A stretch of 64,000 bases of DNA from Chlamydiia bacterium (GTDB lineage: Bacteria; Chlamydiota; Chlamydiia; Chlamydiales; Rhabdochlamydiaceae): positions 1 through 64,000 of the forward strand of contig CAWDOQ010000010.1 in assembly GCA_963804085.1 (NCBI GenBank). Direction: 5' to 3'. Made by a program: the position numbers and the translations under genes. This document shows, piece after piece, positions 19,949 to 62,997 of the stretch. Each line of letters opens with the position of its first letter. The first letter of the stretch is position 1. The notes below the pieces were generated by a model. That model did not search any database, was not told the origin of the DNA, and worked only from the letters and a program-made list of their open reading frames with translations.

Positions 19949-20968
19949 ATGTTCGTCGACACAGTTACAGTCACACTTTCGGCGGGCAAGGGAGGAAATG
20001 GTGTCGTCGCATGGCGACGCGAAAAGTTCATTCCTAAAGGCGGCCCCTCCGGCGGAAACGGCGGCAAGGGCGGCTCGATCATCCTCCAGACAGAAGCGCA
20101 GATCACCTCCCTAGAAGGCTTCCGCAATAGACGCATCATTAAAGCAGAGAACGGCAACCCCGGCGGAGGCGCGTTAAAACAAGGTAGAGGCGGCCGCGAT
20201 CTCATACTAAAAATCCCCTGTGGAACACTCGTCAAAAACGCCAAGACAAAAGAGGTTCTTTTCGATTTTACGGAGGACAAACAAGAGTGGCTCATCTGCA
20301 AGGGAGGACGTGGAGGTAGAGGCAACGCTTCGTTTAGATCGCCTACTCATCAAGCCCCCAACATCTGTACAGAAGGGACACCCGGCCAAAACATTGAGAT
20401 CGAACTCGAGCTCAAGCTGATTGCTGACATCGGCCTAGTTGGCTATCCCAACGCAGGCAAATCCACTCTTCTCTCGAAAGTTACCCATCTGCCCGTAAAA
20501 ATTGGCGCTTACCCCTTTACCACACTCTCTCCCAATTTAAGCTACATCCAGTGCCAAGACCGCTCCCGCGTCCTAGTCGCCGACATCCCCGGTATCATCG
20601 AGTATGCCCACGAAAATAAAGGCCTTGGCCTTGCTTTCCTGCGCCATATCGAGCGGACATCCGCTTTAGTCTATGTGATTGATATCTCCGGCTTTGAAGA
20701 GCGCGACCCTTTCTGCGACTTTGAAGTCCTGCAAAGCGAGCTTCGCTCCTACCAACCAGGGATGTTAGAAAAGCCCTTCCTAGTCGCCCTAAACAAGATC
20801 GACATGGAAGGCGCCCAAGAACAGATCGAGCGCTTCCGCGCCCGCTACCCGTTCGACCCCGAAACCCTCTTTGAAATCTCTGCCATGAATGAAGAGGGGC
20901 TAGAGCCTCTCGTCGAAAGAATGAAGCAACTTAAACTAACGCATACTCCTGCTTTAGCCAGCGTATAA
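19949..20968 (+). CDS. obgE: GTPase ObgE
   Basis: Gly-rich Obg domain, GYPNAGKST, YPFTT, DIPG, NKID. Confidence 0.97.
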   Translation: MFVDTVTVTLSAGKGGNGVVAWRREKFIPKGGPSGGNGGKGGSIILQTEAQITSLEGFRNRRIIKAENGNPGGGALKQGRGGRDLILKIPCGTLVKNAKTKEVLFDFTEDKQEWLICKGGRGGRGNASFRSPTHQAPNICTEGTPGQNIEIELELKLIADIGLVGYPNAGKSTLLSKVTHLPVKIGAYPFTTLSPNLSYIQCQDRSRVLVADIPGIIEYAHENKGLGLAFLRHIERTSALVYVIDISGFEERDPFCDFEVLQSELRSYQPGMLEKPFLVALNKIDMEGAQEQIERFRARYPFDPETLFEISAMNEEGLEPLVERMKQLKLTHTPALASV

Positions 20969-21397
20969 CGTCATCGTTAGAGCGTCAAAAATTCGAGCTT
21001 CCAAACACAAATAAGTTGTAGTCAAATCAGTAAAAATTCTGAGAAGTCCACGATGTGACTGAACAATCCACTATCCACGACACTTTCGTTCACACCATAA
21101 AAATGACAAATGTCAATCTTATGCTATAAAAAGCTCGTTCAAATTTTATAGCATAAAGACGACATTTGTCGATTTGCTGATAGCTTTTTGTGGCATTAAA
21201 ATCAGCAGCAAACATGCAAATATCGATTTATACTGATTTATAGCGTTGTATAGCCATGTATAGCTATACGCGATGACTTGTTCCCCCAAAATTTACTTTT
21301 AAAATCTCTGCCATGAATGAAGAGGGGCTAGAGCCCCTCGTCGAAAAGATGAAACAACTTAAGCTTTTGCAAGCTCCTGCTCTAGCCAGCGTATAAC
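20874..21397 (+). repeat. Imperfect 96-bp direct repeat of the obgE 3' end (20874-20969 / 21302-21397)
   Basis: First 34 nt identical, remainder diverged; copies encode ISAMNEEGLEPLVERMKQLKLTHTPALASV* and ISAMNEEGLEPLVEKMKQLKLLQAPALASV*. Confidence 0.92.
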
Positions 21398-21616
21398 TTG
21401 ATCGATGGAAGGACGCATTCCTGGCTGTTGCTGCGTCATGCTTATAAGCAGTTCACGCTCAAATGAGCCTGCATCTTTGTTCAATGCCGCTTTGTCTTCG
21501 TATAACATCTGACAAAAAGTCACACCGAGAGAATAGATATCCAGGGAGAGCTTTTCTTTCTTCGTACCCCCCAAAAAAAAATTGATAAGTGCTTGACCGA
21601 AATAGGGTCGCGCCAT
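21359..21616 (-). pseudogene. Ser/Thr protein kinase C-lobe remnant
   Basis: DIYSLGVTFCQM and MTQQQPGMRPSIDQV resemble kinase subdomains IX and XI; no N-lobe or catalytic loop seen. Confidence 0.55.
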
Positions 21617-21674
21617 AGGATGCGAATAAAAGAATTCATTTTAAAGAAGGGCTCAAGTTAGCCCAAAACAACTG

Positions 21675-23578
21675 GTGGTATCCATTAGAAACTTACAATC
21701 AAAGCTACTTTCTGCAGTAGGAATTCTGGCGCTCACAATGATGACGCCGGATGCAGAAGCTGTTACGAATATTCCAAATGGTAATACCGTGACAGCCCCC
21801 CGCAGGCTAATGATACAATAAACTTTCAGGCACCCGCTCCCGGCGGTACCTTTGTCATTGAGCCAGGTACCACATTTATTGGCGCTATAACAAACGCAGC
21901 CGCAGGCATAGGAACACTGGTGCTTAACAATGCTAGCCAATTAAATGGTGCTGTTGCGACCGGCGTGAGCCCATTATTAAATGTGAATCTCAGTGGTAAT
22001 GCCACTATCATCGGTGCCACTTCAGCACAAAATTTCAATCTTGGTCAGAATACCCTGACTAACCAGGGCGCTTTGAACCTTCCCTCAGGTATAGTTCTAA
22101 ACACCAAAGTCATTTCCGATGCACTCTTTGGTAACATCGCCGCTTCAGGAGCTGACTCGATTGCCGGAGCTTCTGTTCAAGTTAATGTGGACGCAAGTGG
22201 GGTAATAGCCTTAACGCCTGGCCAGCCTATATTTATTATTAGCGCAGCGGGGACTACATCTGGACTACCCGTCATTGTGACTAGCAACAACGTTCTGTAC
22301 AGCTTCAGCGGGAACAACTTGAATGGTAACATTACCATCACACCCACCCTAAATCCTGTTGTACCTATACCTCCTGTCGGAGCTGGAGTCGTGTTTACGG
22401 AACTTCTTGCAATTGCCGCTGCAAACCCCAACAGTGATATCGCTGCCGTTGTAGCCGCTCTTTCTGCTTTGCCCTCCGGAACAGACATAGCGAACGCGAT
22501 TTTAGAGTTTAACCCTTTCGCAGAGGGAGGACTGACACGCATGAGCTTCGAGTCTGCTAAGCAGTTTCAGCAGATTTGGGCGTTGCATATGACTAACGGT
22601 CGTTGCGTTTACGCACAAGAGTGTGACACGTGCGATACAGTAGACGAAAACGGAAAGCCCATAAGCCAGGCAAAACAAAATGAATGCAAAACGAAAAAAA
22701 ACTCCGGCTGCGACAGCTCGATCAATTGCGATTCTGTTAGCAATCGTTGGGAAGTCTGGGCAGATGGTTTTGGATTGTGGGGTCACCAAGGTAAGCATGA
22801 TTTGTTCCATGGCTATAATGCGAAACTTTATGGAGGAATGGTAGCCGCTCAGGGACCTATCTTCAGAGAATTAAGCGCGGGCTTCGGCGGTGGATATGCG
22901 AACACCACGATAAATCGAGCTCATGGCAACAGATCAAGAATCAACATGTACGATGCGACAGCCTACTTATCTTATAACCCAACGCGCTGGTATCTGGATA
23001 CTGCGTTCTCGTTCGATTACAATCGCTACCACGATAACAGACAGATTAAATTCACAGGCATCGACCGTACTGCAACGGGTCGTTATAATGGCCAGCAGTA
23101 CACAGGCCTGGTTGCCGGGGGCTATCGCTTCTACAAATGGTGTTCCATTTTCACGCCGCTTGCTTCTGTGCAATACTCATACTTGCATGTAGGTAAATAC
23201 CATGAGCGTGGCGCGGGAGATCTTAATTTGCATGTGAAGAGACAGAACTACAGTTTCTTAGAATCAAGCCTGGGATTGAAAGCTGCACGTCCGGTACAGA
23301 CTAGACACGGTGTGGTCGTTCCTGAAGTACACGGCTTATGGCTCTACGACTACTTTAATGATGCGATGAACGTCAAAGCTACCTTTTCCGGCGTAGCTGA
23401 GCAAACCGGTACGTTTAAAACAAAAGGGCCTGGTTTGGCCAGAAATAGAGGAGATGTGGGCGCAGGCATCACATTCATCTCTTGTATCGATCTAGCAGTT
23501 GAAGCTGTCTACAACTATGAATTCAGCCACAGATGGCATGCACACGAAGGTTTAATCAAAATTTCTCAGCAATTCTAG
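21675..23578 (+). CDS. Autotransporter outer-membrane protein (frameshift in the C run near 21795-21801)
   Basis: Signal-like N-terminus upstream of ORF 21920; Asn/Gly/Thr-rich passenger; beta-barrel (WADGFG.., TPLASVQYS, terminal F). Confidence 0.82.
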
Positions 23579-23583
23579 TCCAC

Positions 23584-23620
23584 TTGAACGGGGTTTCCCT
23601 GGGGAAACCCCCGTTCAAAA
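23584..23620 (+). terminator. Hairpin, probable intrinsic terminator after the autotransporter
   Basis: TTGAACGGGGTTTCCC / GGGAAACCCCCGTTCAA inverted repeat; no clear U-tract. Confidence 0.6.
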
Positions 23621-23684
23621 TGACGCCTCTGTACACTTCTAGTAATAATTGTCCAAATATCTAGATTCGTAATAGGGTGAGCCT

Positions 23685-24864
23685 ATGGGCAAATCCCGGA
23701 TTATCATCTTCATTTCGATATTGCTCATCTCGATCGGGCAATCGGTAGATATCTATGTGCCTTCGATGCCCTCCATGGTCGCTGCTTTGGGAACCAGTGA
23801 GGGATTGATACAGAGCTCGCTTGCAGCCGCACTCATCGGTTTTGGCTTGGCGGTCTTTGTCTGGGGACCCCTCTCAGATCATTTTGGACGCAAGGGGCCG
23901 ATCTTAATCGGCATCGGCATCTTTGTGTTAGGGAGTCTGGTGTGTCTTTCTGCGCAAAACATTTTCATGCTCATGCTAGGTCGTACGATTCAAGGATGCG
24001 GGATTGGGTGTGCTGGCACCACTCCCTCTTTATCGAAGGATGTGTTCGAAGGGGAAAAACTGATCAAGGCTTACTCCTATATCTCCATCGCGATGGCGGT
24101 GGTGCCAGTTGTTGCGCCGGTGCTCGGCGGTTACTTGCAAGTCTGGATCGGCTGGCGCGCCAATTTCGCGTTCTTGGCACTTTATGCTCTAGCGGTTTTG
24201 GTCTTCATTTATCGCAATCTGCCAGAGACAAACCTGCATCCAAAACAGGAAGAGCTGACCTTTTCTACGACTGTTTTTCGTTATGCAAGCCTATTGAAGA
24301 GCCGAGTGACTTGGATCCATCTATTCATTTTGATCGCAGTCACAGCTGGAGAGTTCACCTACTGCATCGCGCTTCCGTTTATCTCACAGAACATGCTGGG
24401 GTTTACGCCCGTTGGTAATGGATGGCTTATTGTGATAACGGCAGCGGGTCTGGCTATCGGAGGTCTCTTATCTTCCAAATGCAGTAGGTGGGGCTGGGAA
24501 AAACTTTTGCGTTTGGGATTATCGCTTGCAACAGCCGGTGCACTCTTCATGCTCCTATTTGCTCTCTTCAGGGTGCGCGGGATTGCCCCTGTCGTAGGCC
24601 CAATGATGCTCTACATGCTCGGGGCAGGGATGATATACCCCAACGTGATCGCAGCTCTAATGAGCGCCTATCCAAAGAAATCAGGCACAATGTCTAGTCT
24701 TATTGAGCGGCTTTCAAATGCTCGGCTCCGGCATCGTCATTTTATTTGTCAGCAACTCTTACAATAAAAATCCGATGCTCCTCGCGATTGTCTTAACTGT
24801 ACTGAGCGTGCTGGGGTTACTCGCCCATTTGTCTCTTCGGAGCTCTTCACAGAGAAAATATTGA
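23685..24864 (+). CDS. Bcr/CflA-family MFS efflux transporter (frameshift near 24703; true end ..LSLRSSSQRKY*)
   Basis: DIYVPSMP, GPLSDHFGRK, APVLGG..GWRANF; the final TM helices continue in another frame to TGA at 24864. Confidence 0.85.
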
Positions 24865-24904
24865 GCTTTTCTATTTTTTTGTATAAGATTTTCGCAGATA
24901 CAAA

Positions 24905-25699
24905 ATGCGAAAAGATTTTAGCGATTATATCATCTTTGCTGATGAAAGCGGCGATCACGGGATCACTTCCATCAATCCCGAAAATCCTATCTTTGTGCTC
25001 GTATTTTGCATTTTTAGAAAGTCTGATTATGTTTCGATTGTCAAACCGGCTGTCGCAAAGTTAAAAATCGATTTCTGGGGACACGATCTTGTTGTATTGC
25101 ATAACCACGAAATTCGCAAATCAACCGGCGAATTCGTTTTCCTCTTTGATGAAGAAACACGCAGCGTCTTTTTCCATGTTCTTACCGAAATGCTCAGAAG
25201 TATTCCATTTTCTATTGCCGCTACCGCTGTCGACAAACGCTATCTTAGTAATAATCCGAACTCAAGCAATCCCTACACGCTAGCTCTTGGGTCTTGCCTA
25301 GAGCAAACCCTTAATTTTTTGGAAAACAAACAGGAGTCAGAGCGACTTACTCATATTATCGTTGAAAGTCGAGGTAAGCCCGAAGATCGAGATCTTGGAT
25401 TAGCATTTGATCAAATTGCAGCTTCTACGTTACCGAAGCGTTACCCTTTAGGCCTCCGATTTGCTAACAAACAAACCAATAGCAGCGGTCTTCAAATTGC
25501 TGACCTGGTAGCTCACCCCATTGCAAGGCACATTCTAAAAAGAAATCAGCCTAATAAGGCTTTTGATACCGTAAAAGAAAAGTTGTTAGGATTTCCAGAG
25601 CATGAAGGGAGTGGCCTAAAATGCTATCCCCCAGAAAGCGAAAAGCCTCGGCAGACACCGAGGCAAGACGCCGATCGGGAACTCCCGATCCATTTCTAA
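24905..25699 (+). CDS. DUF3800-family (RNase H-like fold) protein
   Basis: IIFADESGDH, VVLHNHEIRK, IVESRG..ED, GLQIADLVAHPI motifs. Confidence 0.85.
   Translation: MRKDFSDYIIFADESGDHGITSINPENPIFVLVFCIFRKSDYVSIVKPAVAKLKIDFWGHDLVVLHNHEIRKSTGEFVFLFDEETRSVFFHVLTEMLRSIPFSIAATAVDKRYLSNNPNSSNPYTLALGSCLEQTLNFLENKQESERLTHIIVESRGKPEDRDLGLAFDQIAASTLPKRYPLGLRFANKQTNSSGLQIADLVAHPIARHILKRNQPNKAFDTVKEKLLGFPEHEGSGLKCYPPESEKPRQTPRQDADRELPIHF
25634..25696 (+). ncRNA. Candidate DUF3800-associated structured RNA
   Basis: Hairpins GCCTCGG-CAGACA-CCGAGGC (25645-25664) and GATCGGG..CCCGATC (25673-25690) at the gene 3' end. Confidence 0.5.
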
Positions 25700-25829
25700 G
25701 TTGGATTTTATTAAACTGCATATAAAAGATCAAGTAGCTAGCACCTTCTCTGTAAATCCTCTCCTGTAAGAGACTTAGTTCCATTGAGCGTGCTGTGGTC
25801 ACTCGCCCATTTCTCTCTGCGAAGCAGCT

Positions 25830-26540
25830 CTATTTCTTTTTTGATAGAGAGGGGATGGCCTTGTTAATTCCGGTCTTTGTATCATCGAAAAATGCAGGGC
25901 CGACAAGTACTGTCACCTTTTTGACAGTAAGCCGAGAGCTTGCCTGTTGTTTATAGAGATACGCCTGTGTTTGATAAGCATCAACTGCCCCACTAACGAC
26001 ATTACCCCCTACTTCCCCTGTCGGAGAATCATAACCTGCGTCTTTCAGGTCGCTGGCATGGGTATAGCTTGAGACCCCAAGTCTCAATGCCTCTCTCATT
26101 CCTACCATACCCACTAATCTCATTATCTCAGGTTTGAAATTGTTTCGATTTCCAAGGCCTATTATCAATAATTTTTCAGCAGGAATGGTACCAGTCGGTG
26201 GCGTTATCAGAAGGGTTTCAAGCAATTTCCCTCCAAACTTATTGGTTTTACGCAGGTCAGTAATTAATCCATCCAGCGCTTCATCAACATGAAGCAAACC
26301 GTTGAGATCTTTTGGCAAAGCTGGGGGTGAAGTCGTAATGTCTCCTTCTTTATATTCAAACGCACATATGATTTGTAACGGGGTCGCCTGAGAGGCCGGA
26401 CTCTGCACCAAAATTTCGATGTCAACGCCCCCTACCTTACCTAAATCTTCTTTTGTCCCTAGAGCGGCGTTAGCAGCAATCCCTTTTATAGGAATCCATA
26501 GTGTAATCCCAATTATGATGAAGCATTTAATGAAGTGCAT
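25830..26540 (-). CDS. Peptidase M17 N-terminal-domain-like secreted protein
   Basis: LDGLITDLRK..FGGKLLETLLITPP.GTIPAEKLLIIGLG; signal peptide; no catalytic domain. Confidence 0.65.
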   Translation of the reverse strand: MHFIKCFIIIGITLWIPIKGIAANAALGTKEDLGKVGGVDIEILVQSPASQATPLQIICAFEYKEGDITTSPPALPKDLNGLLHVDEALDGLITDLRKTNKFGGKLLETLLITPPTGTIPAEKLLIIGLGNRNNFKPEIMRLVGMVGMREALRLGVSSYTHASDLKDAGYDSPTGEVGGNVVSGAVDAYQTQAYLYKQQASSRLTVKKVTVLVGPAFFDDTKTGINKAIPSLSKKK

Positions 26541-26658
26541 TCTACCTCTCTTAAATAATCCCAGACATACCACGGTATTATTATGTCCGCAATAGAGTAA
26601 ATTTTGACATGTTCAGACTACTATGTTACATCTTGGTAATACAAAATAGGCTTGAAAG

Positions 26659-28485
26659 ATGGCAGAGAAAGAAAGCTTACTCCTATTCAATGGTAAAATC
26701 ACAACGCTTCATCCAAAACAGCCCGAAGTATCTGCGCTATTAATTTCCAACGGCCTTGTCGCTGCCATTGGCAGCGATGAGGAAATCAAAGCCTTTTCAG
26801 ACAAAAATACAACCGAAATCGACTTAAGAAAAAAACGAGTTATTCCAGGCCTTAATGATTCCCACATCCACGTCATTAGAGGTGGACTCAGCTACAACAT
26901 GGAACTTAGATGGGATGGAGTACCCTCCTTAGCCTATGCCTTAGAGATGCTGAAGGAGCAAGTTAGACGCACCCCACCTCCACAATGGGTAAGAGTCATC
27001 GGCGGTTGGTCAGAATTTCAATTCGCCGAAAAAAGAATGCCGACACTACAAGAGATCAATGCAATAGCAGGAGATACTCCTGTGTTCATTTTACATCTCT
27101 ACGATCGCGCACTGCTTAATGCCGCAGCTTTGCGTGCTGTAGGTTATGATAAAAACAGTCCGGATCCAGTTGGTGGACGCATCGAAAGAGATAAAAATGG
27201 AAATCCGACAGGGATTCTCATTGCAGAGCCAAATGCCTCGATTTTGTACTCAGCACTAGCGAAAGGTCCTAAATTATTTCCCGAAGATCAAATGAACTCC
27301 ACTCGACATTTTATGAGGGAACTCAATCGGTTCGGCCTGACAAGCTGCATCGATGCTGGCGGGGGATTCCAAAACTATCCGGAAGATTATCAAATCATCG
27401 AAAAATTGCATAAAAATGATCAGCTCACAGTGCGCATTGCCTATAATTTGTTTACTCAAAGGCCAGGTAATGAACTCGAAGACTTTCAGAGATGGTCAAA
27501 AATGGTTACCCCTTATTCTGGAAACAGCATGTACCGTAATAATGGGGCTGGAGAGATGCTCGTTTTTTCAGCAGCCGACTTTGAGGATTTTCTGTATGAA
27601 CGTCCAGATATGCCCGAAAAAATAGAAGGCGATCTAAAAAAAGCGATCCGGTTTTTAGTAGAAAACCGTTGGCCCTTTCGCTTGCATGCTACCTATGATG
27701 AAACAATAAATCGCGCGCTAAATGTATTCGAAGAAGTTAATCAAGAGATCCCATTTAAGGATCTTTGTTGGTTCTTTGATCATGCGGAAACCATTTCAAA
27801 TGCTAATCTCGAACGTATCCAAGCCCTTAATGGAGGCATTGCAGTACAGCACAGAATGGCTTATCAAGGGGAATATTTTATCAACCGATACGGCAAGCAG
27901 ATGGCCAAAAGGAGTCCTCCTATCCGCAAAATGTTAGAACTCGGGTTACCGGTCGGGGCAGGCACAGATGCGACTCGAGTTGCAAGCTATAATCCTTGGG
28001 TCTCCTTATATTGGATGGTGAGCGGAAAAACTGTTGGAGGGACAAAACTCTTTGGACCTGAAAACACACTTGAAAGATTAGAAGCGCTTCGTCTTTATAC
28101 CTTAGGAAGCGCTAAGCTATCTCGCGAAGATAATGTCAAAGGAAGTCTTGCAAAAGGAATGTATGCTGATTTAGCTGTCCTCTCAGACGACTACTTCACT
28201 GTACCCGAAGAATCAATCCGAGACATCACCTCGCTTCTCACTATCCTTGGAGGTAAAGTCGTTTATGGGGCAAAAGAGTTCAAGGGATTAGATTCTCAAA
28301 AGGCTTTGCCGGTAAGCCCTGATTGGTCTCCTGTTAAAAAATACAACGGATACTTTCCTCACGCTAATAGTCACGATTGCTGTCATCACAAAAAATCCTC
28401 TCTAGACGCTCTTCTAGGGGTTGATAAAAAGGAAGAAGTTCCCCTAAATCCATGGTCGTTTGGATGTGATTGTTTTGCATGGTAG
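26659..28485 (+). CDS. Metal-dependent amidohydrolase (amidohydrolase 3 / YtcJ-like)
   Basis: PGLNDSHIH, FRLHATY, FDHAET, GAGTDATRV. Confidence 0.88.
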   Translation: MAEKESLLLFNGKITTLHPKQPEVSALLISNGLVAAIGSDEEIKAFSDKNTTEIDLRKKRVIPGLNDSHIHVIRGGLSYNMELRWDGVPSLAYALEMLKEQVRRTPPPQWVRVIGGWSEFQFAEKRMPTLQEINAIAGDTPVFILHLYDRALLNAAALRAVGYDKNSPDPVGGRIERDKNGNPTGILIAEPNASILYSALAKGPKLFPEDQMNSTRHFMRELNRFGLTSCIDAGGGFQNYPEDYQIIEKLHKNDQLTVRIAYNLFTQRPGNELEDFQRWSKMVTPYSGNSMYRNNGAGEMLVFSAADFEDFLYERPDMPEKIEGDLKKAIRFLVENRWPFRLHATYDETINRALNVFEEVNQEIPFKDLCWFFDHAETISNANLERIQALNGGIAVQHRMAYQGEYFINRYGKQMAKRSPPIRKMLELGLPVGAGTDATRVASYNPWVSLYWMVSGKTVGGTKLFGPENTLERLEALRLYTLGSAKLSREDNVKGSLAKGMYADLAVLSDDYFTVPEESIRDITSLLTILGGKVVYGAKEFKGLDSQKALPVSPDWSPVKKYNGYFPHANSHDCCHHKKSSLDALLGVDKKEEVPLNPWSFGCDCFAW

Positions 28486-29864: not shown

Positions 29865-29912
29865 AAAACAGTACAAACAATACGATGCGGTAAAGAATTG
29901 AACAGGGGTTTT

Positions 29913-30611
29913 ATGGCTATCTTCAAATCTGACGGCAAAAACGAGATTCATGATGGAATCTCCCATGCACCAGGCGGAGGCAAGGCTTTGCTTGACCCCA
30001 CGGATGTAGTCATCTTATTACTGGATCACCAGGCAGGCTTGTTTCAAACGGTAAAAGATATCAGCGTAGATCAATTGCGAGCTAATGCGACTATGCTTGC
30101 AAAACTCGCGACTCTCATGAAATTGCCGGTCATAACCACTGCCTCGGAGCCCAACGGACCCAATGGTCCGCTCATGCCAGAAATTCATGCGGCAGCACCT
30201 CATGCAATTTTTGTTCCGCGTAAGGGAGAAGTCAATGCATGGGATAATGAACTTTTCGTCCAGACAGTACGCAAAACCGGTAAAAAGACCTTGATTATGG
30301 CCGGCGTCTGGACAAGCGTTTGCGTCATGTTTCCGGCGCTTGATGCCAAAGCAGCAGGCTTCAAAGTGTATGCCGTTATCGATGCATCCGGCGACCCGAG
30401 CGAAATGGTATCCCGAGTGACGCCGATCCGTTTTGCACAAGCCGGGATTATCCCCACCACGACCAATGCGGTCCTATGCGAAGTGCATCGCACTTGGAAC
30501 CAACCCCAAGCCGCTGATATAGCTAAATTGTATACCATGGTGGCACCAAACTATGCTGCGCTGATCGAGAGTTATCAGAAAGCACAAGAAGTTGTGCGGT
30601 CAAAGTCGTAG
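29913..30611 (+). CDS. Isochorismatase-family cysteine hydrolase (YcaC-like)
   Basis: LLLDHQAGL, GPNGPLMPE, GEVNAWD, AGVWTSVC. Confidence 0.88.
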   Translation: MAIFKSDGKNEIHDGISHAPGGGKALLDPTDVVILLLDHQAGLFQTVKDISVDQLRANATMLAKLATLMKLPVITTASEPNGPNGPLMPEIHAAAPHAIFVPRKGEVNAWDNELFVQTVRKTGKKTLIMAGVWTSVCVMFPALDAKAAGFKVYAVIDASGDPSEMVSRVTPIRFAQAGIIPTTTNAVLCEVHRTWNQPQAADIAKLYTMVAPNYAALIESYQKAQEVVRSKS

Positions 30612-30686
30612 GATTATACTTCCCTTTTGAAAGTTCAAGTGCTATAGAACCATTATTGTGGTCTCAAACTAACAATTAGAGGACGT

Positions 30687-31106: not shown

Positions 31107-31121
31107 TTGCTGGTACAGTTT

Positions 31122-47213: not shown

Positions 47214-47253
47214 TTCTGGCCAAAAAAAAACCCACCAAAGGTGGGTTTTTTTT

Positions 47254-51750: not shown

Positions 51751-51790
51751 CCTAAACAAGGTAACTTAAACCAAGACAAGAGGAATAGCA

Positions 51791-52264: not shown

Positions 52265-52276
52265 TCACTTAAAATT

Positions 52277-54367
<2,091 letters not shown>

Positions 54368-54387
54368 ACAAAATTTAGGAAATTATC

Positions 54388-54705
54388 ATGGCAAAGCAAG
54401 CGAAAAAGAAGATCAGGATAAGGCTGAAAGGCTACGACCAGCGCGTGCTCGACCGCTCGACCGCTGACATCGTTGAGACAGCAAAACGCACAGGCGCGCG
54501 TATCGCAGGCCCGATCCCACTTCCCACAAAGCGCGAGATCTACACCGTCCTCCGCTCCCCTCACGTGGACAGAAAGTCGCGCGAGCAGTTTGAGATCCGC
54601 ACGCACATCCGCATGCTCGACATCCTCAACCCCACGCCAGACACGATCGACAAGCTCAAGGTTCTGCCTGTCGCTGCCGGCGTCGACATCAAAATCAAAG
54701 CTTAA
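54388..54705 (+). CDS. rpsJ: 30S ribosomal protein S10
   Basis: [31 protein letters not shown]. Confidence 0.99.
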
Positions 54706-54716
54706 TTAATAAATGA

Positions 54717-54822
54717 AAGTGCGGTGACTTGTCACCGATTTTCTCAACCGAGACTTGTATCGGTGTTCTTTAAAAGCAGTGACAAGTCGCTGTTGTGAAA
54801 GCTGCGACGAGTTGAAGCACTC
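54717..54822. repeat. Degenerate REP-doublet-like palindrome after rpsJ
   Basis: AGTGCGGTGACTTGTCACCG ... GCAGTGACAAGTCGCTG ... GCACT. Confidence 0.55.
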
Positions 54823-54934
54823 GCAAATTAAGATCCACCGCCATTATAAAGTAAAAAATTTACTCGCATTGTTCTATTTGGTGCTTCCATGCTACACTCC
54901 TTGGACTTTCATCTAAATTTTAAGGAGAAAAACG

Positions 54935-55822
54935 ATGGGCGCTCAAATAAATGTTAACAGCAAGGCATATTGCACCAACTACGTAACAACAGCACAATAT
55001 GACGCAGGAATGTACCTAGGCGCAAATGCGAATGCCCCTGCAGTGGCACAGGCACAGCAAAACGGCGCCATTAACGCGATCTTCCGCCCCATCATCATCA
55101 ACTACACTGCTCCTCGATATAACTTCGACTTCAGCAGCCATATTGCACCCGCAGCTCCTGAAAGAGCCAAAACCAAAGAAGAGCGTGACCAAGAAACCGC
55201 AGACTGGGCAAAAGTAGTCGGTTCTGTCATTGCAGTTGTAGGCGCTTTTGCTTTCGCACTCATCTATAAGAACTATGCAGACCAAAGCGAAACGCTCGTT
55301 ACTACCCAAGAGGTGAATAGACAAGTTGCCGGCTGGGATAAGCATGCAGATCCTGTCCATCGCGACATCTACCAGCTGACTCAACGTCAACTCCAAATCG
55401 ATGAGCTCAACGCTTCTCGTATCAACAAATATACCCTCGCTGTGATCGGCGTCCTAGCGGGCGGTCTATTGATGGCGATCGGCGGATTTGCTGTCGCAAC
55501 AACTCTTATCACAGCAGGAGAGATCGTTCTTCTCGCCTCTGCCATCCTCGCCGCTTTCACACTCGGCTGGCATTGGAATGACGACGCAACCATTCGCAAA
55601 CACTATGAAGCGATCGCAGGACGTGTAGGTCCAGGCGCTCATCTCGGCCTTGCAGACAAGATTCTCACGGCTCTCCCAACCCTTGATGACAACATGAACT
55701 CTCTTGCATCCTACGACAGACCTCCGCAATACGTCCCTCTCTTTCCAGAGCTCTATCAGGCAGACGCTCCCCCACCTCCTGCTTATGCAGTCCAGCCCTC
55801 AGCGCCTGAGCTAAACGCATAA
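54935..55822 (+). CDS. Inc-like membrane protein with Pro-rich tail
   Basis: AAGGAG RBS; one TM plus a bilobed hydrophobic stretch of about 48 aa; tail with PPQY, PPAY and PSAP. Confidence 0.7.
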   Translation: MGAQINVNSKAYCTNYVTTAQYDAGMYLGANANAPAVAQAQQNGAINAIFRPIIINYTAPRYNFDFSSHIAPAAPERAKTKEERDQETADWAKVVGSVIAVVGAFAFALIYKNYADQSETLVTTQEVNRQVAGWDKHADPVHRDIYQLTQRQLQIDELNASRINKYTLAVIGVLAGGLLMAIGGFAVATTLITAGEIVLLASAILAAFTLGWHWNDDATIRKHYEAIAGRVGPGAHLGLADKILTALPTLDDNMNSLASYDRPPQYVPLFPELYQADAPPPPAYAVQPSAPELNA

Positions 55823-56095
55823 AGACAGTTGGCCCGCAAAAGAGCAATGGACTGAAAACGGACAAGAAATGGACCAAAACGGACGATAACGGACGCGGGC
55901 AAAAGAAAGAAATTGTCCGTTGGGGCGTTGTCCTTTTTCGTCCATTTTTTGTCCATTCCTCTTCGTTGTCCATTTCCGTCCATTAAGCCCCGTCCTTTTC
56001 TCTTGCAACCTGTTATTACTCTCGGCATTCCAAAAAAGAGAGGATCGGGCGCGCACGCGGGCGCGGAAGCGGGCGCGTGGAAGAGAAATGGAGAG

Positions 56096-56455
56096 TTAGG
56101 AGCCGCCGGCGCCTTTGATGTTGGGGTAGTTGGGGTCTTCTTGGTAGATTAGGTCGTAGGCGGGCTGTCTTTCTGTAGAGACTCTTTTGCCGACAACTTT
56201 GCCTCCTGAGATCAAGATGAAGTAGTGGTTCTCCTGAAGAGTATCACCCGCTACGTTCACCTTTTCGATGTACTCATACTCGTCAATGCCGCCGCCTTTA
56301 GAACGAATTCTGTAGGGATCTCCCCCTCTGGAGGTGACTTCGACTACAGAGGTCCCGAGTGAGATATCGTTAAACCTCTCTCTCGTCATCATCGATTGCC
56401 GATGGAAACAGCCGGCAAGCACAATGAGAACAAGAGCGAGAAGAGCCGTTTTCAT
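56096..56455 (-). CDS. Small lipoprotein
   Basis: Lipobox LAGC; coupled to the upstream ORF. Confidence 0.7.
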   Translation of the reverse strand: MKTALLALVLIVLAGCFHRQSMMTRERFNDISLGTSVVEVTSRGGDPYRIRSKGGGIDEYEYIEKVNVAGDTLQENHYFILISGGKVVGKRVSTERQPAYDLIYQEDPNYPNIKGAGGS

Positions 56456-56940
56456 TCCTTCTCCTCTTGCTCTTCTTTATTGGTTATCTCGGGTGGTGTG
56501 GTCTTTTGCCAGATCTTGCCGCGGATTAGAGTGCGGAACTGATCTTGTGTCGCATACTCAGCGCGCATGAGGTAGGAGCCATCTGCCTGTTTTTCGTAGA
56601 ACTCAAAGCCTTCAAACCCTAAGTCTGGGACTCGGAACTCCCAAGCGATCAGCTTATCGTTGATGATCCCTTTACCGACCACCTTGCCGATTGCCTGGTT
56701 TTCGAGTTCGATCGAAAAGTGGCTGGGACCGAGATCAAAGATGAGAAACTGGTTGTGCATCACATCGGATAGCCCTTTGACCTGGATCTCCTGTATGCAT
56801 TCGATCTTGCCGAGTGGATCGCGCGTGCTGACATTCCAGCGGGTCATAAAGCCGAGCTCTTCCTCGACCATGTTCAGTTGAATTTTGCCCTCGCCTAGCC
56901 AGGAGGTGGGAGAGAGAAGAAAAGGGTGAGTTGTCGCCAT
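56452..56940 (-). CDS. Hypothetical protein
   Basis: 162-aa ORF coupled to the rodA stop. Confidence 0.7.
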   Translation of the reverse strand: MATTHPFLLSPTSWLGEGKIQLNMVEEELGFMTRWNVSTRDPLGKIECIQEIQVKGLSDVMHNQFLIFDLGPSHFSIELENQAIGKVVGKGIINDKLIAWEFRVPDLGFEGFEFYEKQADGSYLMRAEYATQDQFRTLIRGKIWQKTTPPEITNKEEQEEKE

Positions 56941-58067
56941 TAGAACATAAACCTTCTGCTATAGATACTTTGCAAAATGCCTAAAGCCATCATTGTCGAC
57001 AAGACAGAAGATCCGCCATAGGTCACTAAAATCAAAGGCACACCCGTGATAGGCAAAAATCCGCACATCATCCCGATGTTGACGATCACGTGCATGGCCA
57101 AGTAGACGGTAATCCCCGCCGAGAGCAGCCGTCCAAAGCTGTCCTTAGCTACTGCTGTTACCTGAAAGCTAAAATAGATTAAACCAGAAAAAAGCAGCAG
57201 GAGTAAAAAGACGCCGACCAGACCAAACTCCTCTGCAAAAGAGGCGAAGACCGAATCTGTCGAAGCAGCAGGAAGAAAATTATGCCCCGTAAATTCGCTT
57301 TTGCGCCAACCGCTTCCTGTCACGCCGCCGAGTGCGATAGCGGTCTCGGCTGCCTTCTGGTGGTAAGTATCGGGATTAAGCCGCTCATACTGGTACTCTT
57401 TGATCACCTTTGTTACGTAGGGCCGGAGCTCCTCATGCGATAAGATTCCTAAAAACATGAGCGAGACGAAGACCAGCCCGGCAATTCCTAGAACCGACAT
57501 GATCCCCACCACGCGTTTTTTAATGCCGCCAAAGTAGAACATGACGAGCGCGATCGGGTAGAGCACAAGCGAAGTTCCGAGATCGGGCTGCTTTAAGATG
57601 AGCAGAAAAGGGATCATAACAATTGCTATCCCCTGCCATGTGGAGCGGTTCTGTCTAATCTCAGTTGCTCTACTCTCTAAATACCAGCTGAGCGCGATCA
57701 CCACGATAAGCTTAGCGTATTCGGAGGGTTGGAAGGCCATTCCCAAAACGGGGAGGCGGTACCAGCGGTGCACATTTTGAATCGCAGGGACAAAAAAGAG
57801 GCCGATTAGCATGAAGAGCATCGCGATGTAGAGAAACCAGGTACAGGCGCGCAGCTTGTGGTAGTCAAAACCCGCAAAAAAAAAGTAGACTGCCCAGCCA
57901 AGAGCAAACCATTTGATCTGGCTCTTTGTAAAGGCGGTAAAAAAACTCTCCTCGCCCCCCTCGCCTACTGTTGTGGCAGAAATAACGAGCAAGCTGATGC
58001 TCATAAGCCCCAATAGGATAGGAATCAGGCGAAAATCTAAACGTTTAAGGTAGCGATGGTCCCACAT
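56940..58067 (-). CDS. rodA: SEDS protein RodA
   Basis: FQPSEYAK, LKQPDLGT, AIALGG..GSG, TDSVFA..AEEFG, LPITGVPLILVTYGGSS. Confidence 0.9.
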   Translation of the reverse strand: MWDHRYLKRLDFRLIPILLGLMSISLLVISATTVGEGGEESFFTAFTKSQIKWFALGWAVYFFFAGFDYHKLRACTWFLYIAMLFMLIGLFFVPAIQNVHRWYRLPVLGMAFQPSEYAKLIVVIALSWYLESRATEIRQNRSTWQGIAIVMIPFLLILKQPDLGTSLVLYPIALVMFYFGGIKKRVVGIMSVLGIAGLVFVSLMFLGILSHEELRPYVTKVIKEYQYERLNPDTYHQKAAETAIALGGVTGSGWRKSEFTGHNFLPAASTDSVFASFAEEFGLVGVFLLLLLFSGLIYFSFQVTAVAKDSFGRLLSAGITVYLAMHVIVNIGMMCGFLPITGVPLILVTYGGSSVLSTMMALGILQSIYSRRFMF

Positions 58068-58126
58068 AATGCAATGGATGATAATTTAATCTGTTTAGTG
58101 TATATTTTGTACCCTGAGGGTTTTTC

Positions 58127-58873
58127 ATGCCAAACTCCAAGAATATTTACTACCTACATTTTGACACACTCGATTCCACAAACACGTGGGCGAAAAATAA
58201 TATCCACACGCTCGACCCTAACCATCTAACCTGTATTACAGCTCTTGAACAGACAGCAGGTAGAGGTAGATTTCAGAGACGCTGGCTCTCTCCACGAGGG
58301 CAGAACATCTATGCCACCCTGTTTTTTACATTGCAACGCATGAGCAAAGTTGTGATCAACCTAAGCCAGGTGCTCTCTCTCTCTTGCGCCCACGTGCTCA
58401 AGAGCAAGGGGTTTTCTCCTCAGATCAAATGGCCAAACGACCTCCTGCTCTCTGGGAAAAAAGTGGCGGGAATCTTGTGTGAAAGCGTTGCGATGGAAAA
58501 TGATCAGCTCGGCATCATCCTTGGTATTGGTATCAACGTGAATATGACGCAAGAACTACTCAATACACTCGATCAGCCAGCCACATCACTCGCGCAACTC
58601 TCCGGCCACACTTGGGCCTTAGAGCAGATCTTAGAGCCGCTTTTGCAGCAGTTTTTGCAAGATTTAGAGCGCCTGACAAAAGAGGGATTTACCCCTTTCA
58701 TAGCAAGCTATGAGGAGCTGCTTGCTTTTCGTGGCCAGAAAATCACCTGCTCCGATGGATTTCAGACACACAAGGGGATCTGCCATTCGATCAACAAAGA
58801 GGGCAGACTCAATCTTCTCTTGGATAGCGGCAAGATCACGACCCTATCGGCGGGCGAGGTAAAGGTTCAATGA
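58127..58873 (+). CDS. birA: Biotin-protein ligase (no N-terminal HTH)
   Basis: DSTN, QTAGRGRFQRRW.SP, IKWPND, KKVAGILCE, GIGINVN. Confidence 0.95.
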   Translation: MPNSKNIYYLHFDTLDSTNTWAKNNIHTLDPNHLTCITALEQTAGRGRFQRRWLSPRGQNIYATLFFTLQRMSKVVINLSQVLSLSCAHVLKSKGFSPQIKWPNDLLLSGKKVAGILCESVAMENDQLGIILGIGINVNMTQELLNTLDQPATSLAQLSGHTWALEQILEPLLQQFLQDLERLTKEGFTPFIASYEELLAFRGQKITCSDGFQTHKGICHSINKEGRLNLLLDSGKITTLSAGEVKVQ

Positions 58874-59031
58874 GGCCCGCAAAGACGAATGGACGGAAAC
58901 GGACAAGTAATGGACGCGGGCCCAGAAGAAACGCGAAAGTCAAATCGCAAAATGCAAAACGAAAGAAGATCTCTTCCATTTTGCATTCTGCATTCTGCGT
59001 TTTGACTTTATTCTGGGGCGTTGTTCATTTC

Positions 59032-60039
59032 TCATCTTTCGGAAACGTGCGCCTCCATCCCGATATGCACTCTTGAAACGGTGCATGTATAAACTGCCTC
59101 CTTGCATCCCAACCAAAGTGACTTTGGAGGGGTCTGATAAGAGAGGTCGATCTGAACGGCCGGTGCTTTTGCTTTATCCACCAGATATTGCCATCTTTGA
59201 TCGGGAAGAAGAGTAACCCTCTCTTTCACCTTACCTGCTAGTGACAAAACCAGCTCCATGGGAAGGCTTTTGTCATTTGAGCAACTGACCTGACATGCAG
59301 CACTATGCATCTGCTTTGCACTTGTCGTGAAAACGGGCTTGCCGCCCTCATCAAATCTTAAGGAGTAGTCTTTAGATAGGTCGCGGATTTCGATTCTCTG
59401 CAAAATCTTTGCCGTCACCTTGGGCGTGATGAAACCCTCTTGCAGAAGTTCATAATCGATAACAGAATTAGGCTTCATGAGAGAAAAGGTCTTTTCCCAT
59501 CCGTCTCCTCGCATCTTAAGCTCTACGTGAGCATCCGGAAGTGCATTTTTAAAATGGATGTATTTTTTTGTTTTGTATGCGCCTTCTGCATTCTGCGAAG
59601 TCAAGATGTGTTTCTCAACAAGGGGGTGGCCCGTGCGCATGGGTGCGTCAGAAAGAAGACCTACTCGAGACATGCGAGCGGCCGAGCGGAAGATCTCGTT
59701 GATGCATTGCGAATACCCATTTAAAAAATCGGATCTGCGCATCTCGATCGTCTCGCTTTCTAAATACCTTTCAACGTTATCTGCAATAGAGACAAACTTA
59801 TCTTGCAGCGGATGCTTTACCGTGACAAAAAAACTAACGACGTAATCCCAGATGCGACTTACCGCTTCGATGAGAAGTGCAAAAATGCTCTCGGGACGAG
59901 CCTCTAGAGCGAGTCTTCCCTCTTGGTTTAAGACAAACCACTTCTTGTCTTTGCTGTTTTTAGAAACAATGTGATCGAATTCAGGCAGAAGAGACTCATA
60001 AACCCGATATGCGGGATCTAAAGGCTGTACAGGCTGCAT
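59032..60039 (-). CDS. Hypothetical protein, paralog of 60051-61430
   Basis: Shared N-terminal block KWF......L.L..RPES...L..E...R.W....S.F. Confidence 0.65.
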   Translation of the reverse strand: MQPVQPLDPAYRVYESLLPEFDHIVSKNSKDKKWFVLNQEGRLALEARPESIFALLIEAVSRIWDYVVSFFVTVKHPLQDKFVSIADNVERYLESETIEMRRSDFLNGYSQCINEIFRSAARMSRVGLLSDAPMRTGHPLVEKHILTSQNAEGAYKTKKYIHFKNALPDAHVELKMRGDGWEKTFSLMKPNSVIDYELLQEGFITPKVTAKILQRIEIRDLSKDYSLRFDEGGKPVFTTSAKQMHSAACQVSCSNDKSLPMELVLSLAGKVKERVTLLPDQRWQYLVDKAKAPAVQIDLSYQTPPKSLWLGCKEAVYTCTVSRVHIGMEAHVSER

Positions 60040-60050
60040 GCTATTATCTT

Positions 60051-61430
60051 TTACGGATACTCTTGTGTACGAACCCAGCACTCTATTGGCTTGTCCAACG
60101 GTGCAGTCTGGTAATTCTGTTTAGCTCCCGGAGCTACAAAAAACCTCTGCGTCTGCGTTGTTTTTTCCCCCTCTTGGAAAACAATTGTAAACTCGAGGTT
60201 ATTCTTCCTTGCGTTTTCTATAACAAAGCGCGCCTCCTTCTGCTGGGGGTCTAAGGGAAGAGTTTGTACAATAGGTAGCTTACCTCTTTCCGGAAATGAG
60301 ATCATATAGGTGAGCGGCTGAATTGTGTTAAGTGCAAGAGAGCGTTCTACAAGCCTTCGTGGTTCGGAACTGATTTTCAAATCTCCCTCAGCATCTACTT
60401 GGCATACATACTTACCGCGGCTGTAGCCCCGAATCAGCTTTTCCGGTGCTGGTTGTGCTAAGGTAGCGAACTCATAATCTTTTATCGGTCCAATTCCTGG
60501 AGAGAATTGACGAGATTCGCCGGGAGACATCCACGCACATGGAACTGACCGACTATCCGGACTCTCTCCTGCCGCAGCCAGTTTTACTCCGACCTCTCTA
60601 TCGCCTTTGTTCGTAAAATTTAAAACCGGATACTTTGGCGCCGGATCTGCTGAAGGAATTATTGTCACGCGCCCTAAGCGATCAATGTCTACCTGGTGGT
60701 TCCGATCAAGTGTAGGAATGAATCCCTTATTTTTAATAGTGGCACTCACCGTAGTCTCATCGTCGTATCTTCCAAAATAGCCCGCCGTATTCAATTCGGT
60801 TCTCCTGCTTTCATTCTGCCTCAGAAATACGTCTTCAAAAAGACTCCTCATATTCTCCCATCCGTTGGCAAACTGGAAAGAAACGCGCGCGGAAGGATTT
60901 GCATAGTGACGATTTATTATTTGTACATCTGATACCGGGTGGTATCTACCATCTTCGTAGCGTGCAGTCACAAGACACGAAGTGGCAGTGGGAGCGAGTG
61001 TATCATCTCCCTTTTTTCCCGTTTGGATCTCTTGGACAATACGGGCAGCAGCAAGAGAAATCTTTCCGACTGCACCCATCTTTTCTGTAGCGCGGTAGAG
61101 TTCATTTAGTGGGGCGCTATACTTTAAAAGAAAACGATCGCGCTCGTTATAATCAGGTTCTTGAGCTAGGTAATCATTAACATCGCGCGTTAAAATGACA
61201 ATGCGGCGCTCGAGTAACGAAGGTGTGTCGTCGAACAAGCTAGTTAGCCACTGCCAAAATCTAGCGGCGATCTCGCAAATGAGGTCGATGCAGCTTTCGG
61301 GACGGTTGCACAGCACCAACTTATCTGCACTCACGTCAAACCATTTTCCATCATTCGGTCTCTTCTGAACGACATTGTCCAGTTCGGCCGAAAGAGCCAC
61401 ACGTCTGTCAGTTATCGCGATACCCGCCAT
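60051..61430 (-). CDS. Hypothetical protein
   Basis: 459-aa ORF with GAGG RBS; paralogous N-terminus. Confidence 0.7.
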   Translation of the reverse strand: MAGIAITDRRVALSAELDNVVQKRPNDGKWFDVSADKLVLCNRPESCIDLICEIAARFWQWLTSLFDDTPSLLERRIVILTRDVNDYLAQEPDYNERDRFLLKYSAPLNELYRATEKMGAVGKISLAAARIVQEIQTGKKGDDTLAPTATSCLVTARYEDGRYHPVSDVQIINRHYANPSARVSFQFANGWENMRSLFEDVFLRQNESRRTELNTAGYFGRYDDETTVSATIKNKGFIPTLDRNHQVDIDRLGRVTIIPSADPAPKYPVLNFTNKGDREVGVKLAAAGESPDSRSVPCAWMSPGESRQFSPGIGPIKDYEFATLAQPAPEKLIRGYSRGKYVCQVDAEGDLKISSEPRRLVERSLALNTIQPLTYMISFPERGKLPIVQTLPLDPQQKEARFVIENARKNNLEFTIVFQEGEKTTQTQRFFVAPGAKQNYQTAPLDKPIECWVRTQEYP

Positions 61431-61512
61431 AGTTACCTCTCATCAATGTTGAGCAACTATTTTAGTCTAAATTGGGCAATTTCTCTATTAAAATAAGTTT
61501 TAACGGTAGAAA

Positions 61513-62166
61513 TTATTTAAACTTCGATTTCTTTACTTTTTCCACGTTTTTAGGGGGCGTAGAACTATCTTTAAAGCGCACCATCTGCATGTAGCCGATC
61601 ACTCCGAGCGCTTCATTGAGATAGGTTATTCCCTGGCCTGCGTACTGGTGGACCACAAGAGAGGGGAGAACTAAGCCGGATGCGGGACGAGGCTGCATGG
61701 CGGGACTCGCCTTTTTGAAAATAGTGTAGGCGCGAATGCCTTTAGCGATCAGAGCACCGGAAAGAAAGTCGACACCGTATCTACCGAAAATGCGGCCGAC
61801 CAGCTTCCCTCTTTTATAGTCGCCAAGCGCTGCATAGTCTCCTGTCAGCTCTTGCATGTCGGGGACAAAGACGATCAAGATCTCTTTGGCAGAGTGCTCT
61901 TTTAAGTTGTGATAGACGGCTAGAAGTTCGTGTGAAAGCACTTGCGGATGGAAGAATAGCTCCCATAGCCCCACACAGAGCCCCTTTGCAGAAGAGATGA
62001 GCGAAGGGACGAGATAACAGAGCTCTTCGAAAGCCCCCTCTACTACCCCAACCACTATCCCAGCTTCTAAAAGCCCTGCACTATATTCGACTCTTTTTTC
62101 TAGATCGTCTTCCGGCTGAATATAGCAATGGGCGTAGGGCACAAAAAGGGAAGCAGCGTAAGGCAC
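61513..62166 (-). CDS. Hypothetical protein, possibly a truncated polymorphic-toxin-like scaffold
   Basis: 217-aa ORF; helical Gly-rich segment RGKLVGRIFGRYGVDFLSG; family call is tentative. Confidence 0.45.
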   Translation of the reverse strand: MPYAASLFVPYAHCYIQPEDDLEKRVEYSAGLLEAGIVVGVVEGAFEELCYLVPSLISSAKGLCVGLWELFFHPQVLSHELLAVYHNLKEHSAKEILIVFVPDMQELTGDYAALGDYKRGKLVGRIFGRYGVDFLSGALIAKGIRAYTIFKKASPAMQPRPASGLVLPSLVVHQYAGQGITYLNEALGVIGYMQMVRFKDSSTPPKNVEKVKKSKFK

Positions 62167-62275
62167 GCTACGAGAAGATAGAGGCGAGAAACGGCGAGAA
62201 ATTTTCTCATTTTAGAGGGCTTTTTCTCCAATTTTGTAGAAAGGATAAAAAATTGCGAATAAACGATAAAGCTAA

Positions 62276-62997
62276 AACTTGGGGGTGACCGAAATTTCTG
62301 GATGGACCTTAATGAGTTTTTATTAAACGCAAAGGCGCGAAAGACGCAAAATCCGCAAAGCAAAAATATCTGCCGATATTTTTGACTTTATGGAAGGGGT
62401 GCAAAAGTATGATAAGCCGCAGGATTTTAACCACGAAGTGGTAACTAGCTGCGAAGCAGCGACATATGCTAGCCGTGGCGTGACCGAAGGGAACCCACGG
62501 TGTCTGTACTCCTTTCCAAAAACAAGAGCCACGCAAGTGGCGACACCATCGTTTTTGTGTCGCCACTTGCGTGGCTTTCTGTGGAGAGGGGACTGATACC
62601 GTGGGTTCCCTTCGGTCACGCCACGGCTAGCATCTGTAGCCACTTGCGTGGCAATTTACCACTCCGTGGTTCTTTTAAGCCTGATACAGCATCGAGGACG
62701 AGTGTTCTCTACTGCTTTGCATTCCTTCATAAAGTCAAAAATATCGGCAGATATTTTTGCTTTGCGGATTTTGCGTCTTTCGCGCCTTTGCGTTTAATAA
62801 AAACTCTTTGAAGAACTCCTGCGTTAACGCAGGAGATTCTCCCCATGCAAGGGGCTCCTGCTTCGCGTCGCATTATCTATATAGCTCGGCTATCTCGCCC
62901 CTGAAGGGGCAAGATTGCGCTCGAGCAACATGTTCAAATTTCGTCATAATATAGATGATCAGAACTTGGGGGTGACCGAAATTTCTGGATGGACCTT
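62276..62997. mobile_element. Non-coding nested-palindrome insert flanked by a 35-bp direct repeat of the nifU 3' end
   Basis: AACTTGGGGGTGACCGAAATTTCTGGATGGACCTT at 62276-62310 and 62963-62997; about 83-bp inverted arms at 62314-62397 / 62724-62806. Confidence 0.75.

Follow-up and report, generated by a model that had tools for sequence, protein, structure and literature searches.

Why should the last codons of a conserved gene be present a second time downstream of that gene, with other DNA in between? The question is raised by a metagenome-assembled soil genome of a Chlamydiia bacterium from the Rhabdochlamydiaceae (GCA_963804085.1; 2.13 Mb in 24 contigs, 4.97% contamination), of which positions 1-64,000 of contig CAWDOQ010000010.1 (contig C10 of the genome) constitute the stretch analyzed here, hereafter the window. 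Three genes in the window, coding for the GTPase ObgE (obg), a transporter of the MFS family and a NifU-like protein (nifU), are each followed by inserted DNA, here called the cargo, and then by an orphan copy of the gene's own 3' end (Table 1). The loci of this kind are probably scars of 'insertion with long target duplication', in which the DNA of diverged relatives has entered by homology at gene ends, in this case without restriction-modification cargo. A preliminary description of the window had proposed three routes for such insertions, a trans-acting recombinase, homology-anchored uptake from relatives and an RNA-templated process, and the second of these gives the best fit.

The three repeat pairs of the preliminary description were located by alignment and BLAST, and they are far beyond chance expectation. 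The obg repeat spans 112 nt at 86% identity (107 nt at 86.9% in BLAST, E 4e-31 against the whole genome), with a spacing of 428 nt. The first 76 nt of the orphan carry 11 differences from the gene copy, counted by hand on the alignment, and the C-terminal tails read ...EKMKQLKLLQAPALASV before the stop codon in the orphan and ...ERMKQLKLTHTPALASV in the live gene. The MFS repeat is 52 nt long at 81% identity, with a core of 41 nt at 87.8% (E 6e-7) and a spacing of 982 nt. The nifU repeat (62963-62997 / 62276-62310) is 35 nt long and 100% identical (E 6e-11), with a spacing of 687 nt. A phenylalanine and a stop follow both nifU copies, written TTC TGA in the gene but TTT TAG in the orphan. The host gene had been described as intact in all three cases, which is incorrect for the MFS gene, where a frameshift has split it into open reading frames (ORFs) 23685-24767 and 24703-24864.

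The layout recurs throughout the genome. A whole-genome self-BLAST, searched for low-copy direct repeats of 30-300 nt that are at least 78% identical and 100-3000 nt apart, gave 53 pairs at the first pass and 51 pairs in 2.13 Mb in an automatic screen with slightly different multiplicity counting. Pairs were called 3'-type if one copy lies over the stop of a gene and the other lies downstream, and 5'-type if they show the mirror layout at the gene start. Among the 51 pairs, 14 are 3'-type and one is 5'-type, the latter being a pair of tandem paralogs, so that the layout is strongly biased toward 3' ends. Curation resulted in 18 loci with repeats of 32-227 nt at 79-100% identity and cargo ranging from 121 nt to ~10.5 kb. 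An SDR gene at C12:29829 and an epimerase gene at C23:53968 were dropped in this process because the repeat lies wholly past the stop, and C13:24621 and C22:21377 were omitted as probable paralogs or ambiguous. Three loci missed by the automatic rule were added by hand: the MFS gene, on account of its frameshift, and the PEPCK and TP_methylase genes, in which the repeat ends just before the stop codon. A wider search contributed three more, with 5.1, 7.1 and 10.5 kb between the copies. The preliminary description had the copies match best at the gene-proximal end. This is true of obg, nifU, the E2 acyltransferase gene and TamB, but not of the NtrC, GatB, GlmS and FAD monooxygenase loci.

The hosts are mostly housekeeping genes: obg, nifU, glmS, gatB, def, the genes for PEPCK, the E2 acyltransferase, TamB and an NtrC-like regulator, a SWIB/topoisomerase gene, and others. 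The duplicated segment covers the ends of two convergent genes at obg, MFS, glmS/DUF2807 and E2, so that at obg and MFS it also spans the 3' end of the neighbor on the opposite strand. The genome is tightly packed, with ~89% of it under ORF calls. Where convergent gene ends are packed together in this way, only an insertion that duplicates the segment keeps both genes whole.

The cargo is diverse. It contains genes for DUF3800 proteins, an AAA_14/DUF4143 ATPase, a Tag glycosylase with DUF308, TipAS, small-molecule methyltransferases, a DUF6036 nucleotidyltransferase, autotransporters and a LanM-type peptide-modification cluster; in four loci it consists of repeat elements alone. Its G+C content is lower than that of the local flanks in 13 of 14 loci. 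Pfam scans, mostly confined to cargo ORFs of at least 100 residues, found no recombinase, integrase or transposase domain in inserts of up to 10.5 kb, and among the same ORFs there are no restriction enzymes or recognizable DNA-methyltransferase families.

The differences between the copies retain the imprint of coding sequence, as had been claimed from the three cases in the window. The aligned codons of the 18 loci contain 130 differences, distributed over the three codon positions as 30/23/77 (chi-square p 2e-9). Seventy of these are synonymous and 60 are non-synonymous, giving a pN/pS of 0.25. A copy made in place was simulated with a neutral orphan and a gene evolving at omega 0.1-0.3 and kappa 2.5-4 (six settings, 2000 runs each). 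The simulated means were 46-54 synonymous differences of 130, and no setting gave a probability above 0.0035 of reaching at least 70. The excess over the simulation indicates that part of the divergence arose while both copies were constrained as coding sequence. Such coding-like divergence is what two alleles of separate lineages would show. In seven loci (nifU, E2, TamB, gatB, a 145-residue gene, DUF6314 and a MORN gene) the two copies have different stop codons at the same position, and in one or two loci the orphan stop has turned into a sense codon. Decay of the orphans after the event is also visible, with frameshifting indels in several of them.

A comparison with a sister strain provides a view of the obg locus without its insert. 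Only two public runs, X1 and X2, both of them soil metagenomes, matched 14% of the sampled words of window positions 19500-26800; their Logan contigs and those of runs X3 and X4 were aligned to the window. X2 yielded near-identical short pieces, and X3 and X4 yielded short conserved pieces only. The X1 strain differs from the window by 3.8% over obg (54 of 1410 letters). A 1674-nt X1 contig follows the window from 19536 to 20945 and resumes at 21374, skipping exactly 428 nt, and this represents an empty obg site. A protein encoded on a contig of 1674 nt is 99% identical to the Obg of the window and ends in ...ERMKQLKLTHTPALASV, as the live gene does, unlike the orphan with its ...EKMKQLKLLQAPALASV, so that the orphan is more than the former end of the gene left in place. 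The agreement of the tails implies that the 428-nt insert starts ~23 nt before the obg stop and has 76 nt of diverged obg sequence at its other end. Judging from these alignments, the insert is circularly permuted relative to the empty site. The pattern fits what a single reciprocal crossover of a circular molecule would produce, or else a loss in X1 between the repeats, and a one-sided anchored insertion into an X1-like ancestor would not fit it.

Empty sites in relatives had been named as a test of the layout. Of the two loci compared with X1, the repeat is single-copy there at obg, and the MFS insert is present. The relatives compared all belong to other genera, with obg DNA at most 70% identical, and give no empty sites: in nine relatives' loci the kinase-like neighbor of obg does not adjoin that gene. 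Metagenome scans gave no match to the C-terminal peptide pattern of NifU and, with Obg, 80 loci of which none exceeds 76% identity.

Evidence for two alleles is found on contig C15. Here the end of glmS is followed by an 81-nt hairpin spacer and by the terminal part of the convergent DUF2807 gene; directly after this come another glmS end, a gene B of 513 residues and the live end of the DUF2807 gene. The two halves meet at an imperfect microhomology of 8-9 nt, which is visible at this locus alone, and the repeats share 96-97% identity. Since the spacer shows no relation to the sequences on either side of gene B, the arrangement did not come about by simple duplication and subsequent deletion. 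The order of segments is thus that of a form lacking gene B next to a form that has it, two alleles arranged in tandem.

These observations can be accommodated by the following sequence of events. The DNA of a diverged relative would bring its own version of the conserved gene end together with what lies downstream of it in that lineage, either an accessory gene or repeat elements. It would enter through the host's homologous recombination inside the shared gene end, either by a single crossover of a circularized fragment or by a homologous anchor on one side combined with a microhomology join. The gene would retain a complete 3' end with the cargo next to it, and the second gene-end copy would be stranded downstream, which is the layout seen at the loci. 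The orphan would later decay through indels and frameshifts, as several have. The direct repeats might also recombine again and remove the insert, a step consistent with one locus. The bias toward 3' ends would then be a survival filter, because an insert at the 5' end would cut the gene from its promoter; an insert behind the stop, accompanied by a duplicated end, would spare both the gene and its tightly packed convergent neighbor. Homologs of ComEC and DprA are present in the genome, which is weak evidence because the same families also match most control genomes.

Several observations weigh against uptake from relatives. The stop-codon tally is only suggestive, with a hand-estimated p of ~0.01 to 0.14, according to the way in which changes in the live gene enter the count. 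The youngest pairs, 95-97% identical, have no synonymous excess: the ratios of synonymous to non-synonymous differences are 1/3 in GlmS, 2/4 in DUF6314, 4/4 in Def and 5/9 in the FAD monooxygenase. The glmS orphan differs at two residues (G and D) that are conserved in three relatives, and their loss is a mark of decay rather than of a working allele. A secondary loss in X1 could also account for the empty obg site, which would then not be ancestral. RecA would be expected to favor the 34-nt perfect block, yet the crossover at obg falls in a short one (8 identical nt, a mismatch and 15 more). The sequences compared include no donor genome, so that the foreign origin of the DNA is inferred only. 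Finally, the junctions of this genome are known from its assembly, not from reads of the source sample, and the X2 pieces cross none of them.

Some of the same observations would suit a duplication in place, in which a tandem duplication or a microhomology template switch over the gene end leaves two copies, one of them decays, and cargo is gained or lost between them, so that the repeat requires no foreign DNA. The 8-9-nt microhomology on contig C15 is typical of tandem duplications, the decayed glmS orphan and the lack of a synonymous excess in the youngest pairs are as expected, and transformation-triggered tandem duplications are documented, although those in the account consulted are ~100-900 kb long (PMC3784515). 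Nevertheless, this explanation is improbable. The pooled count of synonymous differences exceeds what such a history gave in every simulated setting, and a symmetric process would not favor 3' over 5' ends by 14 to 1. A simple tandem event requires the cargo to be repeated after the orphan, where it is not repeated, and on contig C15 the spacer of the form lacking gene B has no relation to the flanks of that gene. The divergence of the obg orphan, 11 positions in 76 nt, also stands out against the 3.8% by which the whole obg region of X1 differs.

Remnants of site-specific integration at gene 3' ends, with the integrase lost or with mobilization in trans as in cis-mobilizable elements, are a less likely source. 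Integrase-driven islands would be expected to show a 3' bias, a recoded replacement end (attP) and a reciprocal hybrid structure, the very features described here. The genome contains three matches to the tyrosine recombinase family PF00589, the third being a 361-residue protein at C16:85895, but all of them are away from the 18 loci. The 18 inserts, the longest of which reaches 10.5 kb, neither contain nor adjoin a tyrosine recombinase and are indeed integrase-less, as first described. The 18 targets are all different, their repeats vary from 32 to 227 nt, and no core k-mer is common to them beyond what random gene ends of equal lengths share. A single trans-acting site-specific recombinase is likewise not supported. 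Inserts as short as 121 nt occur. Cases of a tRNA plus an integrase can mimic long target duplication, according to the part of PMC2853133 that deals with them, but no tRNA is involved here: Rfam and tRNA scans detected no family and no tRNA within the inserts, and the only tRNA in the window, at 47253, is unrelated to them. Nothing in these scans points to an RNA-templated route either.

An assembly artefact, in which the sequences of two co-existing strains that differ behind one and the same gene were strung together, is very improbable. The fragmentation and contamination of the assembly, and the divergence of 3-4% between the copies on contig C15, close to the strain-level divergence seen with X1, would suit such an error. 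However, four X1 contigs, assembled independently from another sample, tile 23742-25831 and reproduce both junctions of the MFS-DUF3800-orphan layout. Loci of the same kind exist in G219, a relative from another genus whose genome is a single contig. The same screen over 1.2 of its 2.07 Mb gave 22 pairs, three of them 3'-type and one 5'-type; the 3'-type loci have repeats of 39-127 nt, 85-90% identical, that enclose 0.8-2.7 kb of cargo, with a stop in both copies in two of the three and an orphan without a stop in the third. Strain mis-joins are also unlike identities down to 79% with indels in the orphans, would not favor 3' ends 14 to 1, and would presumably not occur at microhomologies of 8-9 nt, where an assembler is not expected to join. 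Target-site duplication by a transposon or a miniature inverted-repeat transposable element, which is short and of fixed length, was rejected because nine of the 12 palindromic copies lack the repeat, the repeats vary in length and most cargo is not a repeat element.

If uptake from relatives is accepted, the repeats themselves may be a working part of the process. A cassette might be released as a circle when host recombination joins the two gene-end copies that flank it, reach a co-infecting relative and integrate there through one crossover with that relative's copy of the gene end; both the circular permutation of the obg insert and the vacant site of the sister strain fit such a cycle of excision and reintegration, which is put forward here only as a tentative extension. 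It would amount, more speculatively than the insertion itself, to an integrase-free, RecA-driven movement of cassettes among environmental chlamydiae, with the ends of housekeeping genes as landing pads.

The coordinates of the features are given in Table 1. In the obg region, two short ORFs at 21359-21940 on the reverse strand, convergent with obg, look like fragments of what was once a larger gene. The first, a weakly kinase-like ORF, has its stop inside the obg orphan, which indicates that the two genes once overlapped tail to tail.

Table 1. Features of the three loci in the window (window coordinates) and of the corresponding loci in the relative G219 (coordinates within the 1.2 Mb examined)
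Feature	Position	Strand	Basis
obg (GTPase ObgE), host of case 1	19949..20968	+	Pfam GTP1_OBG 2e-56, MMR_HSR1
obg gene-attached copy: last 32 codons, stop and ~13 nt	20870..20981	+	alignment
Case 1 cargo, 316 nt, G+C 0.35, genome-unique, no ORF with a Pfam match	20982..21297	.	BLAST, Pfam
Imperfect 32-nt inverted repeat inside the obg cargo	21100-21175		
Orphan copy of the obg end	21298..21409	+	alignment
Convergent ORF with its stop within the obg orphan; possibly a protein-kinase C-terminal remnant (weak)	21359..21616	-	Pkinase E 0.14, below cut-off
MFS transporter gene, host of case 2, frameshifted near 24698	23685..24864	+	Pfam MFS_1 3.5e-43; two overlapping ORFs
MFS gene-attached copy	24792..24843	+	alignment
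DUF3800 gene, case 2 cargo	24905..25699	+	Pfam DUF3800 2.2e-14
Orphan copy of the MFS end, directly next to the convergent gene's stop	25774..25825	+	alignment
Convergent neighbor with a Peptidase_M17_N domain	25830..26573	-	Pfam
Orphan copy of the nifU end: 35 nt exact, then TTT TAG	62272..62310	-	alignment
Case 3 cargo, part 2: 499-nt palindromic (foldback) element, genome-wide family	62311..62809	.	BLAST
Case 3 cargo, part 1: dispersed repeat, copies on C2, C7, C16, C17 and C22	62807..62937	.	BLAST
nifU-like gene, host of case 3	62959..63675	-	Pfam NifU, NifU_N
nifU gene-attached copy: 35 nt exact, then TTC TGA	62959..62997	-	alignment
Three 3'-type loci of G219, in the 1.2 Mb examined	36056/36892, 415518/418227, 1121758/1124235		gene end, cargo, orphan end

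The MFS-DUF3800 locus of X1 has one base fewer than the window at 24698 and three bases more after 24841. A 6516-nt X1 contig matches the window up to 25831 and then diverges, so that the DNA past the MFS orphan is either different there or less than 85% alike. DUF3800 is patchy in the order, being present in 20 of 301 genomes in unrelated neighborhoods. None of the homologs in 11 relatives' loci adjoins an MFS gene, and a nearby direct repeat accompanies only two of the 11, which shows that the duplication is not a property of the DUF3800 cassette. Further DUF3800 copies in the genome lie at C19:274402-275169, C6:899-1582 and C15:98410-98493; among them are a copy interrupted by an internal stop and a short remnant.

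The palindromic element behind nifU has 82-nt arms that are 99% complementary, and region 62311-62809 gave no Rfam match at the gathering score. It belongs to a foldback family with ~12 further paired copies of 86-818 nt (e.g. C2:171974-172445 and C19:197884-198689), which have common terminal arms of ~80 nt and no visible coding capacity. Long repeats flank only three of 12 palindromic-element copies, those at nifU, PEPCK and an FlgN-like gene, and the other nine are at the control level, from which it follows that the element itself does not make the duplication. The dispersed repeat next to it is ~130 nt long, and its copies, 80-97% identical, often stand directly behind genes.

The 7-kb cargo behind a MORN-repeat gene is a lanthipeptide-type cluster at C19:75600-82600. 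It contains DUF4135 and LANC_like genes, NHase_alpha-like precursor genes and genes for FAD enzymes. At C12:21.9-24.6 kb, likewise beside a MORN gene, the cargo is a cassette of the same NHase_alpha-like type but of smaller size.

How obligate intracellular chlamydiae acquire genes is poorly understood, and loci of this kind offer dated, countable scars of integrase-free acquisition. If the reading as uptake from relatives is right, the 3' ends of conserved genes are entry points for accessory DNA, and the orphan copies record the recipient's allele at the time of each event. Since the scanned cargo matches no restriction-modification family, the process would not need restriction enzymes, and long target duplication would be independent of them, contrary to what earlier surveys have suggested.

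Among the known systems, integrase-driven islands at the 3' ends of genes and tRNAs, together with their integrase-less cis-mobilizable derivatives, share the replacement 3' end, the flanking direct repeats and the 3' bias. They differ from the loci described here, which have no integrase in cis and no shared core, involve 18 targets with variable repeats, and include inserts down to 121 nt. The minimal mobile elements of Neisseria are exchanged through a double crossover, one in each flanking gene, and are not known to leave a gene end duplicated, whereas the duplication of the gene end is the hallmark here. In other respects those elements are similar in kind, being described as integrase-free cassettes between conserved genes that are exchanged by transformation and homologous recombination (PMC3787668, PMC1797815).

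A displaced orphan 3' end is also known from Rhs, contact-dependent inhibition (CDI) and type VI arrays, where, as outlined in PMC5361080, a module is anchored by homology in the conserved upstream portion of a gene, its far end is joined illegitimately and the resident 3' region is displaced as an orphan. The orphans reported here are likewise displaced downstream. However, they are only 32-227 nt long, their hosts are housekeeping genes (Obg, NifU, GlmS, GatB, Def) instead of the polymorphic toxins treated there, and no immunity gene follows. Moreover, if the X1 state is ancestral, the obg locus would fit a reciprocal single crossover better than the one-sided anchor of homology-facilitated illegitimate recombination as presented in that account.

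The closest precedent is the class of insertions that lack a mobility gene and are flanked by target duplications of variable length above 30 bp, described in PMC2853133 for restriction-modification genes in several bacteria. The class is therefore already known as a kind, and its mechanism is unsolved. The published cases are mostly from naturally competent bacteria, and DNA breakage by the enzyme is suggested there as the cause, with the mechanism not established (PMC2853133). No publication on target duplication in chlamydiae was found, as judged by titles and abstracts. The present loci resemble the published class in having direct repeats of more than 30 bp (18 of 18 loci) that vary in length from case to case and are single-copy at the empty site (at obg), in lacking a transposase or integrase in the scanned cargo, and in that some of the published repeats also overlap the 3' end of a gene. 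They differ in that the published cases were sought around restriction-modification genes, whereas the scanned cargo here matches no such family. Beyond this, the chlamydial genome presents 18 loci in a single genome, a measured bias toward 3' ends and a coding signature between the copies, which set it apart from the cases covered in that survey.

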